64,000 nt of DNA from an uncultured Candidatus Saccharibacteria bacterium. Lineage in GTDB: Bacteria; Patescibacteriota; Minisyncoccia; 2-02-FULL-40-12; GWA2-44-9. The notes below the pieces were generated by a model. That model saw only the letters and a program-made list of their open reading frames with translations. It ran no database searches and was not told the DNA's origin. Numbering within the stretch: position 1 is the first letter of the stretch; every line of letters starts with the position of its first letter. The position numbers and the translations under genes were made by a program. Shown piece by piece: positions 2,360 through 50,043 of the stretch. The stretch spans positions 127,914 to 191,913 of the forward strand of contig CAZENF010000003.1 of assembly GCA_964513645.1 (NCBI GenBank), in the 5' to 3' direction.

Positions 2360-3493
2360 CTATCCTTTTAAAGGTGATGTCCTAAGTTTAGGTTCTTTAT
2401 GATTCTTAAGTTCGTTTATAAATTCTTCAAAATCAGTGTGGGCAACACAAACATAACTATCGGCTCCACCGTAATAGACAAGAAGTTTTCTGTTCTTTAC
2501 CACCGCGCCTGAAGCATAGACAACTCCGCCTTTAAAACCGTGATTCTCGTAATGTTCGTTCGGTTCAAGTATCGGAGCTTTTGCCCGGGCGATTATTCTA
2601 GTCGGATCGTCTTGGTCAAGAAGCATTGCTCCGACGCGGTATTTGCCCCAGTCGTTATCCATTGCGTGATAGAACAAGAGCCAGCCATATTTAGTCTTAA
2701 TCGGTACCGGTCCTGCGCCACGTAGCCACCTATCCCAACAGTTTTTTCTGCGTTTTCCGCCGCCGTGGAAACTTTGAATATAATTTGTATCATCGAATTC
2801 CATCGTATCTCGGTACTCAACTTTTATTTCAGGATTTATGCTGTGCAATATCGCGTATTTTCCTTTTATTTTTTCCGGGAATATCAGCCAGTTTTTATGA
2901 ACCTCTCCGGGAGGGGAAAGAAGGATGGGTTCGGTCCAGTTCCACCTCTTATTTCTGAAGTCATCAACTTTTATGGAAGTTAAAGCGACCCGTAAATCTC
3001 CGTTGCAGGCGGTGTAGGTCATAAAAAGAGCATCTTCATTGCCTACTCTGACTATTCTCGGGTCTTCTCCGCCGCCCCATGAGCCGCCGGAAAAATATGA
3101 AAAAACATTATAAGACCTTTTTTGGTTAGGGTGTTCATAGGCCGGTTGAGGGTGGCGCTCTTTTATTCCAAAACCGTCGTCTGATGCGGCATAACCCAGA
3201 CGGGAAACACCGTCAGGTCCTATTGCCCGGTACATAAAATGAACTTTATCATCGAGCTGGACAACTCCTGGATTAAACGTCTGCCAGCCGTCCCATTCAT
3301 TGTTGTGCCGGGGAGAGATTATCGGATTAGAATGCGGTTTCCGAAGGGCTAATTTTGGAAAAGATTTTTTGGCCGGAGATTTTTTCTGTTTTTTTTGGTT
3401 TTTCGGTTTTGAAACCAACTTAACATTTCTCTTTTTTGGAGTTGTCGTTTTTTCTGTTTTTTTTCTGCCAAATCTTGACTTTTTTTGGGCCAT
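2360..3493 (-). CDS. GH130 family glycoside phosphorylase with a lysine-rich, disordered N-terminal tail of about 50 aa
   Basis: GGEDPRIVRVGNEDALFMTYTACNGD and YYGGADSYVCVA GH130 motifs. N-terminus is MAQKKSRFGRKKTEKTTTPKKRNVKLVSKPKNQKKQKKSPAKK. Confidence 0.7.
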   Translation of the reverse strand: MAQKKSRFGRKKTEKTTTPKKRNVKLVSKPKNQKKQKKSPAKKSFPKLALRKPHSNPIISPRHNNEWDGWQTFNPGVVQLDDKVHFMYRAIGPDGVSRLGYAASDDGFGIKERHPQPAYEHPNQKRSYNVFSYFSGGSWGGGEDPRIVRVGNEDALFMTYTACNGDLRVALTSIKVDDFRNKRWNWTEPILLSPPGEVHKNWLIFPEKIKGKYAILHSINPEIKVEYRDTMEFDDTNYIQSFHGGGKRRKNCWDRWLRGAGPVPIKTKYGWLLFYHAMDNDWGKYRVGAMLLDQDDPTRIIARAKAPILEPNEHYENHGFKGGVVYASGAVVKNRKLLVYYGGADSYVCVAHTDFEEFINELKNHKEPKLRTSPLKG

Positions 3494-3614
3494 TTAAGTA
3501 TGAAAAGACACTTAAATTATAAGGCTTTTTTACTTCTTAGACAAACAAAAATGGTGGATAACAATATTGATATAAATGATAGTATTTTGGTCATAAATCG
3601 TGTATTATTAAATT

Positions 3615-6424: not shown

Positions 6425-6826
6425 ATGACCAAATCTATATACAAAATTCTTATCGTTGAAGATGAAAAACTTATGCAGGAGCTCCTTACCGACCGTCTTT
6501 CTAAAGAGCCGATATTTAAGATCTACACCGCCAGCAACGGTGAGGAAGGGTTCGAAGTTTGCCGGGAATATATTCCAGACCTGATACTCCTTGATATAAA
6601 AATGCCTGTTATGGACGGGATAATGATGATGAGGGAGTTAAAAAAATACGAACAACTCAAGGATATTCCGATAATATTTCTGACCAATCTCGATCCGGAT
6701 GAGGACATTATCAAAAAGATCTCGGAAGAAAAACCGTCATACTACCTTATCAAAGCGAAAACAAATCTCGAGGATATTACCGAGAGGGTTAAAGAGACTC
6801 TTTCTGCAAAAAGACCGACATCTTAA
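6425..6826 (+). CDS. Stand-alone response regulator receiver (CheY-like) protein
   Basis: ILIVEDEKLMQELL...DLILLDIKMPVMDG...IIFLT; acidic pocket, phospho-acceptor Asp and conserved Lys contexts present; no output domain. Confidence 0.85.
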   Translation: MTKSIYKILIVEDEKLMQELLTDRLSKEPIFKIYTASNGEEGFEVCREYIPDLILLDIKMPVMDGIMMMRELKKYEQLKDIPIIFLTNLDPDEDIIKKISEEKPSYYLIKAKTNLEDITERVKETLSAKRPTS

Positions 6827-6898
6827 AAAAGCCGGACAGGCCCAAAAACTCTTATAATTTAAGGAAATTTAATCCATAGGCTGGTCAGCTGGTTTTTT

Positions 6899-7447
6899 TT
6901 GTGTAACAATTTGGCGCCAATAACGTCTTCAAATATGTCAGAACATAACGTGCTCAATGAACAATTCATGCAAGCCTATGACCAGTTTTCAGATGCTATA
7001 TTCAGGCATTGCTGGTTTAGGATTGGGGATCGTGAGAAGGCCAAAGATCTGATGCAGGATACTTTCACCAAATCATGGCAGTACATCGCCGATGGGGGCG
7101 TGGTCCAGAACCTTAAGCCATTTCTTTACCGCGTTGCCAATAATCTTATAATTGATGAATACCGGAAGAAAAAAGAACTTTCGCTTGATAGTCTTCAGAC
7201 CCTGGGCTTTGATCCTGGATTTGACGACCGGAACAGGAATGACAACCGGATCGACGCCAAACTGGCGGTCAGTGTGGTGAATCAGCTCGACGATAAATAT
7301 AAAGAGGTGGTTTTGATGAGATATATTGACGACATGTCGCCTTCGGAAATTGCCGAAGCCGTCGGAGAATCGGAGAATAACGTTTCAGTCAGGATACATC
7401 GCGGCCTTAAACAGTTAAAAGAAATTCTTGGAAAAAATGGAAGATAA
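6899..7447 (+). CDS. ECF-type RNA polymerase sigma-70 family factor
   Basis: Region 2 (LMQDTFTKSWQYI...YRVANNLIIDEYRKKK) and region 4 helix-turn-helix (LMRYIDDMSPSEIAEAVGESENNVSVRIHRGLKQLKEIL). Start may be the ATG at 6935 (MSEHNV). Confidence 0.85.
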   Translation: MCNNLAPITSSNMSEHNVLNEQFMQAYDQFSDAIFRHCWFRIGDREKAKDLMQDTFTKSWQYIADGGVVQNLKPFLYRVANNLIIDEYRKKKELSLDSLQTLGFDPGFDDRNRNDNRIDAKLAVSVVNQLDDKYKEVVLMRYIDDMSPSEIAEAVGESENNVSVRIHRGLKQLKEILGKNGR

Positions 7448-8386: not shown

Positions 8387-9895
8387 ATGTCCAATAAGGC
8401 AGATGGTAAACTCAAAATACTTTTTGTCGCTTCCGAAGCGGCCCCTTTTGTTAAGGTTGGTGGTTTAGGCGAAGTGATGCGCTCCTTACCTAAGGCGCTA
8501 CGGAAACTCGGCCATGATGCCCGTGTTCTTATTCCCAAATACGCATCCATAGATCTTGAAAAATATCCTCTCGAGACCGAACTTAACAACATCAAGATCG
8601 CGAGCGGCGACAAGGACCCTTACGGTATTCTCATCTGTAACATTCTGAATCATGTGGGCTCCGACGGGGCTATCAATTATTTTCTTGAGAACATGGAATA
8701 TTATGAAAAAAGGGCCAATGTTTACGGTTATACCGATGATACGGTCCGCTGGGTCCTTCTTTCGAAGGCGGCTCTTGAGTTTGTCAGACAATCCAAATGG
8801 AAGCCGGACCTTATCGTCGCTTCTGACTGGCAGACCGGCTTTATTCCTAACCTCGTTCATACAGAATACAAAGATGATCCGGTACCCTCAAAGATACCCG
8901 TTGTTTTCTCTATCCATAATCTCAAATACCAAGGAACGTTCGATCCACGTTTTGTTTCGGAGATGGATTTTGATTCCGGTCAGGCTCCGATATCTGATTT
9001 TTTTGACCCCCAGACCCATAAATTAAGTGGGATGAGAAGGGGAATAATGTTCGCCGATGTTATCAATACTGTTTCCGAGACCTATGCCAGAGAAATTCTG
9101 ACCGAAGAGTTCGGTGAAGGTTTGGATAAACTTTTAAGTGAGCGTAAAAGCCGTCTTTTCGGTATTCTTAATGGCATTGATGTGGAATCTCTTAATCCAG
9201 AGACGGACAAAGAACTCGAAGTTAATTACAATATTCGTTCGACCGACAAAAGAAAAGAGAACAAGACCAGTCTTCAGAAACAATTCGGTTTGCCTCCTGA
9301 CGAGAATGTTTTTGTCATCGGGATGGTTTCGCGTATCGACGGCCAGAAGGGATTCGACCTGGTGACGCAAATGATCGGCCCCTTGATGGACAACATAAAC
9401 TTCCAGTTTGTTATCGTCGGAGAGGGCGATACCGGTTATCGGACATTTTTCGAAGAGCTTAAGGTTAAATATCCCGACCGGGTCGGTACGCATTTTTCAT
9501 TTGATTCACGTCTGCCGCGTCTGGTTTTCGGTGGCGCGGACGGGGTTTTGATACCCTCAAGATTCGAGCCCTCGGGTCTGGTGCAGATGGAAGCGATGCG
9601 CTACGGTGCCGTGCCTATTGTCAGGAAGGTTGGCGGCTTGGCGGATTCGGTTGCAGATTTTGCTCCGGAGTCTGACAGCGGTACCGGATTTGTTTTCGAA
9701 AGATACGATGCTTTTTCTCTGACGACTGCAATAATTCGAGCTCACGAACTTTACCGCCACAAAAAGGAATGGGAAAAGCTTGTTAAAAGAGCGATGACTG
9801 AAGACTTTTCTTGGGAAAAGTCCGCCGCGGAATACATAAAACTATTTGAAATGGCACTAAGGTTTCACAAGGAAAAAAGCGATGAGGTGGGCTAA
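8387..9895 (+). CDS. glgA: Glycogen (starch) synthase, GT5 family
   Basis: KILFVASEAAPFVKVGGLGEVMRSLPKAL (K-V-G-G-L ADP-glucose binding motif), GT-B architecture, 502 aa. Confidence 0.85.
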   Translation: MSNKADGKLKILFVASEAAPFVKVGGLGEVMRSLPKALRKLGHDARVLIPKYASIDLEKYPLETELNNIKIASGDKDPYGILICNILNHVGSDGAINYFLENMEYYEKRANVYGYTDDTVRWVLLSKAALEFVRQSKWKPDLIVASDWQTGFIPNLVHTEYKDDPVPSKIPVVFSIHNLKYQGTFDPRFVSEMDFDSGQAPISDFFDPQTHKLSGMRRGIMFADVINTVSETYAREILTEEFGEGLDKLLSERKSRLFGILNGIDVESLNPETDKELEVNYNIRSTDKRKENKTSLQKQFGLPPDENVFVIGMVSRIDGQKGFDLVTQMIGPLMDNINFQFVIVGEGDTGYRTFFEELKVKYPDRVGTHFSFDSRLPRLVFGGADGVLIPSRFEPSGLVQMEAMRYGAVPIVRKVGGLADSVADFAPESDSGTGFVFERYDAFSLTTAIIRAHELYRHKKEWEKLVKRAMTEDFSWEKSAAEYIKLFEMALRFHKEKSDEVG

Positions 9896-12145: not shown

Positions 12146-12181
12146 AATAGTTTTTTGTGAATGAGCTTTAGTGTATGGTAT
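12146..12181 (+). promoter_or_regulatory. Sigma70 promoter with extended -10 (TTGTGA-18-TGgTATAAT)
   Basis: ttgtga...tggtataat immediately upstream of the msrA ATG at 12192. Confidence 0.5.
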
Positions 12182-12191
12182 AATTTTTCTA

Positions 12192-12752
12192 ATGAATAAA
12201 TCAACCCTAAAAGAAGCTATGTTCGGAGCGGGATGTTTTTGGGGAGTTCAGTATAATTTTGACCAACTGAAAGGTGTGATTGAAACAGAGGTCGGTTATG
12301 CCGGTGGACACACCGATAAACCGACTTACAAAGAAGTTTGTACCGACAAAACCGGCCATGCCGAAGTTGTTCATTTGCAGTATGACACTTCGGTCGTCAG
12401 TTACGAAGAATTGCTCAAAAATTTTTGGGAAAATCATGACCCAACAACAATGAACCGTCAGGGTCCGGATATTGGCAGCCAATACCGCTCGATAATTTTT
12501 TATTATGATGAAGAGCAGAAACGGACGGCGGAAAGGTCAAAAGAAGAGCTCGGTAAATCAGGCGAGTACATGAATCCCGTACGAAGTCTCGCTCGCGACA
12601 AAGTCACGAGTCCTCAAAAGGACCTCGGCGAGGCTACTTCGTACGGGATGAACAAAGTCGTGACCGAGATCGTCCCGGCCTCGCAGTTCTACAAAGCCGA
12701 GGAATATCATCAGAAATATTTTGAGAAGACCGGCCAGAAAGTTTGTCATTGA
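12192..12752 (+). CDS. msrA: Peptide methionine-S-sulfoxide reductase MsrA
   Basis: MNKSTLKEAMFGAGCFWGVQ (GCFWG active site) and GYAGGHTDKPTYKEVCTDKTGHAEVV. The track start at 12171 lies inside the -10 box, so ATG 12192 is preferred. Confidence 0.9.
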   Translation: MNKSTLKEAMFGAGCFWGVQYNFDQLKGVIETEVGYAGGHTDKPTYKEVCTDKTGHAEVVHLQYDTSVVSYEELLKNFWENHDPTTMNRQGPDIGSQYRSIIFYYDEEQKRTAERSKEELGKSGEYMNPVRSLARDKVTSPQKDLGEATSYGMNKVVTEIVPASQFYKAEEYHQKYFEKTGQKVCH

Positions 12753-12983
12753 TTTATAGATATCTTTTGGCTCGGATCGGATGTCCAAAATCTCTGCGCA
12801 TTTTGGCACCCTATCCCCTCGGCATTTCGAAGATCCGTTGTTAAGTCCGTGCTTATTTGTTACCGAAAATTATTCGTCAAAGCTCTAATTTTCGAACAAA
12901 TGGGCACTACCGCCTTACAGCGTCTTATTGATGAGCCGAAATGCCTGCGGGAAATTCCTCGCTAAAAGATATCTATAAATCAA
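12749..12983. repeat. Perfect 20-nt inverted repeat pair flanking 195 nt of non-coding DNA (MITE-like or structured-RNA element)
   Basis: ttgatttatagatatctttt (12749-12768, overlapping the msrA stop) and its exact reverse complement aaaagatatctataaatcaa (12964-12983). Internal complementary pair cggcatttcg / cgaaatgcc. Confidence 0.6.
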
Positions 12984-13039
12984 TATTTTCGCAGACTGTC
13001 TTTTTTGAACATCTAAATACTTAAATTGAATTTGCGCAG

Positions 13040-13235
13040 CCTGTCCCAATTTTTGTCACTTGATGAGCCGAATGAATTTAAGAAGATAGTTTAGATTTCT
13101 ATATCAAAATAATAGGTCGAGCGCCGAACGATAGTGAGGAGGCAAGCGAGGGTTACCTGTTATTTTGATAATAAAATCTATGCTATTCTGAATAAATTTA
13201 TGAGGCGAGGAACCGTGACCAAAAATTGGGACAGG
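13040..13235. repeat. Second inverted repeat pair (20/21 nt) flanking about 155 nt, ending 25 nt before msrB
   Basis: cctgtcccaatttttgtcac (13040-13059) versus gtgaccaaaaattgggacagg (13216-13235). Also a direct repeat ttgatgagccgaa(a)tg at 12928 and 13060. Confidence 0.55.
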
Positions 13236-13259
13236 CGAAAGCAAATTTATAAATAAAAA

Positions 13260-13673
13260 ATGACCAAAGACGAAATACAAAAAATGAATGAAGAAGATTG
13301 GAAGAAAAAGCTGACGCCGAAACAGTATAAAATTTTGCGTGAGAAGGGTACGGAAATGGCCTTTACCGGCAAGTATTATAAGAATCATGAGTCGGGGATG
13401 TATGTCTGCGGCGCCTGTGGCCAGGAATTATTCTCTTCAGATACCAAGTTTGATTCAGGTTCCGGCTGGCCGAGTTTCACGGATCCGGTCAACCGTGAGA
13501 ATGTTGAACTAAAACTCGATACCAGTCATGGCATGAACCGTGTCGAGGTTATCTGCAAGAATTGCGGTTCTCATCTGGGCCATGTCTTTGATGACGGCCC
13601 GAAGGATAAGGGTGGCAAACGCTTTTGTATCAATTCCTGTGCTCTGGATTTTAAAAAGAAAGAAGATAAATAA
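13260..13673 (+). CDS. msrB: Peptide methionine-R-sulfoxide reductase MsrB (SelR)
   Basis: CGACGQELF...GSGWPSF...[21 protein letters not shown]: two CxxC zinc motifs and the catalytic Cys context of MsrB. Confidence 0.9.
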
Positions 13674-49477: not shown

Positions 49478-49525
49478 CGAAGTTTACTCCATTATACTCG
49501 GGATTTTAGGGTTTAGCCATCGGGC

Positions 49526-49554
49526 TTGCCTTAAAAGCCGTTCTATGATATCAT
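49526..49554 (+). promoter_or_regulatory. Sigma70 promoter (TTGCCT-17-TATCAT) for the RRM protein gene
   Basis: ttgcct at 49526-49531, 17-nt spacer, tatcat at 49549-49554. Confidence 0.45.
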
Positions 49555-49595
49555 ATAGGCATTGTAGGTTTTTCTCGCGTTTCCTCTAAGCTTTT

Positions 49596-49690
49596 AGTAG
49601 GAACTGACGGGAGGTCGTTCCTACTAAAAATAGATAGGTCAGGGGAGGGTTACCATGAATTTTTCTTGGTTTATTTTCTCCTCGATCTAA
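49596..49690 (+). promoter_or_regulatory. Structured 5' leader: perfect 10-bp hairpin followed by a strong RBS and an 11-codon uORF ending 8 nt before the RRM gene start
   Basis: tagtaggaac-tgacgggaggtc-gttcctacta (49596-49627); aggggaggg RBS; ATG 49655 encodes MNFSWFIFSSI, stop TAA 49688-49690; RRM gene GTG at 49699. Confidence 0.45.
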
Positions 49691-49698
49691 ACAATTAG

Positions 49699-50043
49699 GT
49701 GAAGAAATTATATGTAGGCAATCTGCCCTACTCAACCACTGATGCCGATTTGAAGAGCATGGTCTCTCAATACGGTTCAGTCGATTCTGCTTCTGTCCTC
49801 ATGGACAGAATGTCGGGTCGTTCAAGAGGTTTCGGATTCGTCGAAATGTCGAACGATGATGAAGCCCAGGCCGCAATTGACGGTTTGAACGGTAAAGAGT
49901 TCGAAGGCAGGAAGCTGGTTGTCAATGAAGCCAGACCGCCTGCCGAACGAGGCCCTCGAAGGAGCTTCGGTGGCGGTGGCGGTGGACGTGGTGGATTTGG
50001 CGGCGGACGCGGAGGCTACGGCCGAGGCGGCGACAGCTACTAA
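49699..50043 (+). CDS. RRM-type RNA-binding protein with Gly/Arg-rich C-terminal tail
   Basis: RNP2 LYVGNL, RNP1 RGFGFVEM, C-terminal GGGGGGRGGFGGGRGGYGRGG; GTG start. Confidence 0.85.
   Translation: MKKLYVGNLPYSTTDADLKSMVSQYGSVDSASVLMDRMSGRSRGFGFVEMSNDDEAQAAIDGLNGKEFEGRKLVVNEARPPAERGPRRSFGGGGGGRGGFGGGRGGYGRGGDSY

Follow-up and report, generated by a model that had tools for sequence, protein, structure and literature searches.

We analysed a 64,000-nt stretch of DNA (the window) from an uncultured Candidatus Saccharibacteria bacterium (assembly GCA_964513645.1, contig CAZENF010000003.1), in which the genes msrA and msrB lie on the same strand and are separated by 507 nt (12753-13259). By a crude open reading frame (ORF) call, the coding density of the window is about 92%. 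The longest ORF lying wholly within the gap has 44 amino acids; the size of the gap and its lack of a credible ORF agree with the original prediction. An antisense ORF of 94 amino acids (13104-13388) extends from the gap into msrB, and none of six gap ORFs (0/6) was present, by exact look-up, in a collection of 15 billion proteins. The gap is non-coding, is an insertion relative to the same junction in related genomes, and contains two separate hairpin modules with terminal inverted repeats, named A and B. The features are the following.

12192-12752, + strand: msrA, peptide-methionine (S)-S-oxide reductase, stop codon TGA at 12750-12752; the C-terminus ...EKTGQKVCH and the stop position are as in relatives.
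12748-12984, no strand assigned: module A, a foldback hairpin of 237 nt, from inverted-repeat analysis and folding.
12928-12940, + strand: motif TTGATGAGCCGAA, first copy, in A, within a 10-nt asymmetric internal loop.
12985-13021, no strand assigned: inter-module spacer of 37 nt, without counterpart in the 4-19-nt spacers of relatives.
13022-13026, no strand assigned: TAAAT, left copy of a 5-bp direct repeat directly outside B, read from the sequence; candidate target-site duplication.
13027-13249, + strand: module B, a foldback hairpin of 223 nt, from inverted-repeat analysis and folding.
13060-13072, + strand: motif TTGATGAGCCGAA, second copy, in the left arm of B.
13197-13208, + strand: TTTATGAGGCGA, a copy of motif TTGATGAGCCGAA with one mismatch, in the right arm of B.
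13250-13254, no strand assigned: TAAAT, right copy of the 5-bp direct repeat directly outside B, read from the sequence; candidate target-site duplication.
13260-13673, + strand: msrB (SelR domain), without a Shine-Dalgarno motif upstream.

Module A, whose ends read ATTGATTTAT...ATAAATCAAT, is closed by terminal arms at 12748-12776 and 12956-12984 that pair over 29 nt at 90%, with 21 nt perfect. The core pair, 12749-12768 and 12964-12983, is perfectly complementary, as had been predicted for these 20 nt, and the pairing extends beyond it to the full arms. The interior holds nested stems at 12814-12829/12937-12952 and 12849-12861/12895-12907 and, at about 12785-12808, a side hairpin. The final codon of msrA and its stop (cATTGA) lie in the left arm, so that the overlap with the msrA stop proposed earlier is correct. 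Because the MsrA C-terminus (...KVCH) and the stop are conserved, the first 5 nt of the left arm (ATTGA) are native msrA. The predicted RNA fold of A has a z-score of −8.65, and the folding energies are equal on the two strands (−89.6 and −89.9 kcal/mol).

Module B, with ends reading TGAATTTGC...GCAAATTTA, has arms at 13039-13055 and 13220-13236 that are perfect over 17 nt and reach about 32 nt if one indel is allowed. The pair of 20/21 nt originally placed at 13040-13059/13216-13235 holds if one bulged G is allowed, the perfect stretch being 17 nt and the hairpin itself running from 13027 to 13249. The inner arms (13086-13117/13155-13186) pair at 81%, and the module is self-complementary over its entire length (68% over 227 nt). 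These inner arms and the nested stems of A account for the further internal complementary segments of the prediction, while its 14-nt direct repeat proved to be one of 13 nt, namely the two exact copies of TTGATGAGCCGAA. The fold of B has a z-score of −13.4, and the + strand is favoured by about 18 kcal/mol (−93.3 against −75.6 kcal/mol on the − strand). The chance of finding the flanking TAAAT pair is roughly estimated at 0.002-0.02 in this AT-rich context, and the pair is plausibly a 5-bp target-site duplication.

Taken over its entire length, the gap folds with z = −11.5 on the + strand and z = −10.4 on the − strand. As controls, six of the seven other large apparent gaps of the window gave z-scores between −1.0 and +0.6, the seventh (49478-49918, z = −5.4) being partly coding. 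The only inverted repeats of the 64 kb with arms of at least 16 nt lying more than 15 nt apart are the pairs of A and B. The feature is thus real and non-random, and we rejected the alternative that the gap is merely decayed intergenic DNA. A and B were also considered as one single composite; the outer pairing that would unite them (12749-12771/13235-13257) is merely 74% and AT-rich, and we treated it as chance or weak family resemblance. Two Logan contigs (SRR12313479, SRR12313480) match 12928-13300 and 13148-13300 at 100% identity, although contigs and assembly may share their source samples; for 12748-12927, at the left of module A, the assembly is the single source.

We compared the hairpins with known RNA classes. 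Rfam 15 at its gathering thresholds gave no match over the full 64 kb, and at E ≤ 10 the region 12400-13500 returned only chance-level microRNA, snoRNA, lncRNA and viral-pseudoknot models, so the Rfam check of the gap as a structured RNA was negative. It is barely credible to us that the gap is an integron attC site, or a known small-RNA gene or ribozyme (6S RNA or a hammerhead, for example) whose version in the Candidate Phyla Radiation (CPR) is missed by the Rfam models. In favour of such a reading, A and B are both long hairpins of about 200 nt, and UUGAUGAGCCGAA recalls the pair of conserved strands in the hammerhead core (UGAUGAG...CGAA). A hammerhead was assessed as a three-way junction with CUGAUGA and GAAA cores separated by stem II; the local UUGAUGAG-CC-GAA has U in place of C3, leaves no room for stem II (GAG-CC-GAA) and lies within a two-strand helix. 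6S RNA was discarded in view of the missing large central bubble in B. For attC, the modules measure 223-237 bp against 57-141 bp, the core sites RYYYAAC/GTTRRRY are absent from their ends and no integrase was found in the 50 ORFs scanned across the window. A retron, a TIGR array, a bridge RNA and an omega RNA were rejected because of the anatomy of the modules and for want of a partner gene, no reverse transcriptase, Tas or recombinase gene being found among the 50 window ORFs scanned.

The closest named homologues of both MsrA and MsrB belong to Candidatus Yanofskybacteria (Parcubacteria, CPR). In the window the genes are arranged as GT5, GH57, GDPD (on the − strand), msrA, msrB, thioredoxin-like, PGI and DoxX, and the conserved order is GT5-GH57-GDPD-msrA-msrB-...-PGI-DoxX-Grx, of which the part from GT5 to msrB and the pair PGI-DoxX recur in relatives. 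In five relatives of the same order the two genes overlap by 10 nt (L014) or are separated by 4 nt (L094), 9 nt (L005), 13 nt (contig P0024) or 19 nt (L096-L099). The 507 nt of the window are therefore an insertion.

Three further relatives have non-coding DNA at the same junction, with only weak sequence similarity. In L003 (Yanofskybacteria, GCA_016181145.1), 748 nt separate msrA and msrB. Its first hairpin (6517-6682) has a left arm, CATTAAGCAGAATATC..., that also contains the msrA stop, and its second hairpin (7068-7257) stops 14 nt short of msrB. Between the two lies an ORF (6689-7054) for a hypothetical protein of 121 amino acids (MBI2065158.1), in which an HExxH motif (HELIH) was recognised by eye and to which no Pfam family was assigned; the region of this ORF may be a hairpin-bounded cassette. 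BLAST found no similarity between the L003 gap and that of the window, and the two are not alignable. The locus L004, from another sample, encodes an MsrA identical to that of L003, yet its sequence diverges right after the hairpin arm: L004 retains a long left arm (3459-3498) that is 75% complementary to the right arm of L003, at the place where L003 has a nested GC-rich palindrome (6536-6610, GGTCAGGCC...GGCCTGACC-like). With identical MsrA proteins and unlike downstream DNA, the junction region differs between these two assemblies. Additionally, at least 130 nt of non-coding DNA follow msrA in L095, and at least 89 nt in L100, before the contig ends. The contigs L095, L100 and L004 come from runs SRR22387835, SRR22387878 and SRR12113430.

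The architecture of L003 bears on a further explanation, namely that the 507 nt are the remnant of a larger insertion, a hairpin-bounded gene cassette or insertion sequence that lost its coding part and left its two boundary hairpins and a 37-nt scar. The succession hairpin, ORF, hairpin, with outer edges placed as in the window, and the unexplained origin of the 37-nt spacer would agree with this. Nevertheless, the two gaps share no sequence similarity, each of A and B forms a complete palindrome in itself, B is flanked by a direct repeat of its own, and no ORF remnant is detectable in the spacer; we give this explanation a slim chance.

The presence or absence of inserted DNA among relatives is patchy, on a poorly resolved tree. 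In a neighbour-joining tree of MsrA, built from one protein alignment of 151 columns with weak resolution, occupied and empty lineages are interspersed, L003 for instance being paired with the empty L014. A scan of Joint Genome Institute (JGI) metagenomes based on MsrA yielded at least 80 loci, and among the matches listed only L014 and L015 are close relatives. Relatives sought through msrB added little: P0138 and P0135 were uninformative, L104 reaches no further than 84 nt upstream of msrB, and the gene before msrB in L105 is a different one. Look-ups of the window's own MsrA and of the protein P0001 gave no entry.

We also observed that the contigs L001, L002, L004, L095 and L100 end within or beside hairpin regions. 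These ends may reflect assembly graphs breaking at inverted repeats, in which case collections of short contigs may contain too few palindromic elements of this kind.

The reading that we favour, with our confidence evenly balanced for and against it, is that the 507 nt consist of two adjacent non-autonomous foldback insertions, similar to MITEs (miniature transposable elements with inverted repeats), at a tolerated site. A and B would have landed in an msrA-msrB junction originally of 0-20 nt, and would belong to loose, fast-diverging, lineage-specific palindromic modules that also occur at this junction in some Yanofskybacteria-like CPR genomes. Prokaryotic MITEs are described as elements of less than about 500 bp in total, with terminal inverted repeats of about 4-30 bp, with flanking direct repeats that possibly fade with age, AT-rich, without a transposase gene, and giving a transcript that forms a stable stem-loop; they are repeated in a genome, or the same element is found at different loci, and a related autonomous insertion sequence shares their terminal repeats (PMC10969869). 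A and B show five of these properties: their length (237 and 223 bp), terminal inverted repeats (arms of 17-29 nt), AT-richness (GC 0.38 against about 0.43 nearby), non-coding character and a transcript predicted to form a hairpin. The earlier proposal of one or two MITE-like insertions is thus supported by the empty site in relatives and by two AT-rich, non-coding modules of less than 250 bp with terminal inverted repeats, one of them with a 5-bp flanking repeat; the further copies that it would imply were not found in the window or in the collections searched.

QMITE2 of Coxiella burnetii, for comparison, has inverted repeats of 23-29 bp, a core of 113-145 bp and direct repeats of 7-9 bp (PMC10969869). 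Like MITEs of this type, A and B are shorter than 500 bp, AT-rich, non-coding and intergenic, have terminal repeats of 17-29 nt, form one long predicted stem-loop and, in the case of B, possess a short flanking repeat. They differ in that neither a second copy nor a parent insertion sequence was found, that A is without a direct repeat, and that B is palindromic throughout and not just at its ends.

Several results weigh against the insertion of MITE-like elements. Neither A nor B had a second copy in the 64-kb window, which is all that was searched of the source genome, or in the about 105 loci that we fetched. The whole gap had no match in plasmid and phage collections in a BLASTN mode for distant similarity, and an exact-match scan of IMG/VR with the B arm gave chance single matches or none. 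The exact 20-mer of the A arm, searched in 185,579 species-representative genomes from which the source genome is absent, gave eight unrelated single matches and none with both arms. The check for multiple copies suggested with the original prediction is thus negative over all these collections, and we take it as a weak negative. The modules found here with weak relationship to A and B all lie at the msrA-msrB junction, a pattern that may be due to sampling bias since only msrA-centred loci were sampled. No transposase, integrase or recombinase Pfam family was detected in the 50 ORFs scanned across the window, nor any other match to the arms in it that could mark a related autonomous insertion sequence. 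Module A has no flanking direct repeat or target-site duplication, its flanks being TTGTC and ATTTT. Finally, the mismatches in the arms of B are distributed asymmetrically between the strands, a pattern not expected of a DNA palindrome that simply decays.

In favour of a family, local alignments of A, B and the fillers of relatives gave p ≤ about 0.015 in about 8 of 42 comparisons, where about 0.6 would be expected by chance with shuffles that kept single-base composition only. In the main matches, the tails of L095 and L004 align to B as reverse complements, the former to its left arm over about 80 nt (z = 3.6) and the latter with z = 5.2, and the L100 tail aligns to the apical part of A (z = 3.5). 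The motif TTGATGAGSCGA has three copies in the window, one of them with one mismatch, all in the gap and on the + strand; in about 100 loci, apart from the window's own sequence in L002, the L004 tail is the one place where it recurs, there on the opposite strand. Because of these weak matches and of the shared motif, we take A, B and the junction fillers of relatives to form, probably, a single loose set of palindromic modules that have diverged.

The mismatches of B were examined position by position. Of 19 mismatched positions in its arms, read on the + strand, 12 are G·A, 3 are G·U, 1 is A·C and none is C·T; by rough estimate, at a purine fraction of 0.57, the 12:0 split between G·A and C·T has a probability of about 0.006. 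In the minimum-energy structure, four tandem motifs stand in symmetric loops:

13065-66/13207-08, 13070-71/13202-03, 13082-83/13190-91 and 13119-20/13148-49, + strand: tandem 5'-GA/3'-AG motifs in B.

This asymmetry suggests that B was selected, or arose, as a single strand, the + strand, which is the sense strand of both genes. It would also fit an element that moves through a single-stranded intermediate.

These data, together with the preference of B for folding on the sense strand, bring in the large structured RNA that had been offered as an alternative: one or both hairpins, especially B, would be functional in an msrA-msrB transcript, the pairing being selected while the sequence drifts. 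Such an RNA could be a site of RNase III processing or an insulator, a stabiliser of the msrA 3' end, or a protein-binding 5' element of msrB. Consistent with it, the second hairpin of L003 likewise prefers the + strand (−83.4 against −73.9 kcal/mol), and the left arm of the first hairpin brings 5-6 nt of the native msrA end into pairing both in the window (ATTGA/TCAAT) and in L003 (CATTAA/TTAATG), though the remainder of the arms differs in sequence. The stems are near-perfect despite elements that can barely be aligned across species. On the other side, no Rfam family was matched even at E = 10, A folds equally well on both strands, and an ORF sits between the hairpins of L003. The five relatives of conserved order do without the region, which is therefore dispensable, and stems perfect over 17-24 bp characterise young inverted repeats, not conserved RNAs. 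There is no alignment of orthologues in which covariation could be counted, L003 being the only locus with both arms and not alignable with the window, while L095, L100 and L004 end inside the element. The strand-asymmetric mismatches of B thus speak for a locus-specific structured RNA and the silence of Rfam against it, and we consider it, the main rival of the MITE-like reading, somewhat unlikely. A further possibility, which strikes us as decidedly unlikely, is that CPR bacteria have a new, lineage-specific kind of structured RNA module to which B, and perhaps A, would belong: a long sense-strand hairpin whose tandem G·A motifs would be a candidate recognition surface for a protein or RNase, inserted at junctions, splitting translationally coupled operons into independently expressed, leaderless units in genomes nearly devoid of Shine-Dalgarno sequences, and kept by selection on pairing and not by transposition.

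Expression of the separated genes was considered under the MITE-like reading. The two promoter candidates are:

12155-12184, + strand: promoter-like TTGTGA-18-TATAAT of msrA, ending 7 nt before the ATG.
13226-13253, + strand: candidate msrB promoter for a leaderless mRNA, with TTGGGA (13226-13231) in the right arm of B, a 16-nt spacer and TATAAA (13248-13253).

The TATAAA box ends 6 nt ahead of the msrB ATG. Shine-Dalgarno motifs are almost entirely missing from the 40 nt upstream of the window's genes, and in several genes, including those starting at 8387, 12192 (msrA) and 14809, a TATAAT ends about 7 nt before the ATG. These two observations imply leaderless mRNAs, and suggest from sequence that such mRNAs may be widespread in this genome. 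The msrB candidate was not called by a promoter scan, because its -10 box lacks the conserved final T. The suggestion that the right arm of the second inverted repeat may supply the msrB promoter therefore receives modest support: the geometry is that of other genes, the final T is missing and the scan is silent.

In the proposed sequence of events, the junction would originally have coupled msrA and msrB as a pair, and the insertion of foldback modules would then have uncoupled msrB from msrA. The 24-bp basal stem of A, which includes the msrA stop, could close the msrA transcript with a 3'-terminal hairpin, as a stabiliser or weak terminator, and the right end of B may supply the promoter that keeps msrB expressed as a leaderless mRNA. 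An alternative, not separable from this model, is that transcription reads through and RNase III cuts the long stems.

Correia/NEMIS (Neisseria miniature insertion sequence) elements and ERIC elements (the repetitive intergenic consensus of enterobacteria) are co-transcribed palindromic repeats that make promoters, form RNase III targets or alter mRNA stability; they exist in tens to hundreds of near-identical copies and have a defined TA duplication. A and B resemble them as palindromic insertions between co-oriented genes, in a presumed transcript, with promoter-like hexamers at the end near the downstream start. They are unlike them in that the modules related to A and B are only weakly similar. 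A also recalls the SPRITE-like terminator-forming repeats of Streptococcus pneumoniae (PMC10969869), since its hairpin starts at the upstream stop codon and is followed by AUAUUUUC; at 237 nt it is, however, far above the size of an intrinsic terminator, the U-run is short, and a terminator scan found nothing.

A second type of palindromic element was found within msrA itself.

12573-12650, + strand: palindromic element of about 78 nt in msrA, in frame, adding 26 amino acids (NPVRSLARDKVTSPQKDLGEATSYGM).

The 26-residue insertion is absent at this position in 12 of 12 aligned homologues, and P0035 has a similar insertion at another site. The element, of about 80 nt, ends with TCCCGTWWGAAGT...ACTTCWWACGGGA and has T(G/T/A)AA-like flanking bases. 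A near-identical element lies in frame at a different site in the msrA of L015 (P0035; 1187-1263), and its terminal repeat differs from that of the window by compensatory changes (CCCGTACGAAGT/ACTTCGTACGGG to CCCGTTAGAAGT/ACTTCTAACGGG). Similar elements were seen in an intergenic spacer of L003 (2189-2272) and, with a related terminus, over the glutaredoxin stop codon of L014 (8279-8391). The peptide that it encodes (MNPVRSLARDKVASPKDLGEATSYGMN) occurs at the N-termini of a predicted trigger factor, SecE, a RecR fragment and several small proteins, and also inside a predicted protein of 437 amino acids. Against IMG/VR, the terminal repeat gave chance single matches or none.

Rickettsia palindromic elements (RPEs) are palindromic and insert in frame in unrelated genes of a reduced genome (PMC10969869). 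The element of about 80 nt is like them in standing in frame in msrA and in other proteins of a reduced genome. A and B are unlike RPEs, being intergenic, three times longer and without sequence shared with the element of about 80 nt; the host, moreover, is a CPR bacterium and not an alphaproteobacterium. By showing that the lineage hosts mobile palindromes, this element lends indirect support to the mobile reading of A and B.

Elsewhere in the window, the interval 49478-49918 is the only other strongly structured apparent gap (z from −5.4 to −5.8), and includes a hairpin at 49592-49629 with 13 bp perfectly paired. The 3' part of the interval seems to encode an RRM-type RNA-binding protein (...RGFGFVEMSNDDEAQAAIDGLNGKEFEGRKL, by eye) overlooked in the crude ORF call, and the structured part may therefore be the 5' leader of this gene. 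A scan of the 64 kb for tRNA and tmRNA found none. Cumulative GC skew climbs steadily across the region without a turning point, and a replication origin or terminus at the gap was rejected on this ground.

The usual picture of CPR (Patescibacteria) genomes is one of small size, streamlining and little mobile DNA. Within the library that was searched, a search combining Patescibacteria and MITE found no paper on MITE-type elements in these bacteria. The msrA-msrB locus would show that the few intergenic junctions of CPR genomes are open to repeated colonisation by hairpin-forming modules. It would also show that such a module can part two formerly coupled genes and may supply a new promoter to the downstream one, in a genome apparently reliant on leaderless mRNAs. 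The element in msrA suggests an RPE-like phenomenon outside Rickettsia, and would be a second independent case of palindromes remodelling proteins in reduced genomes.

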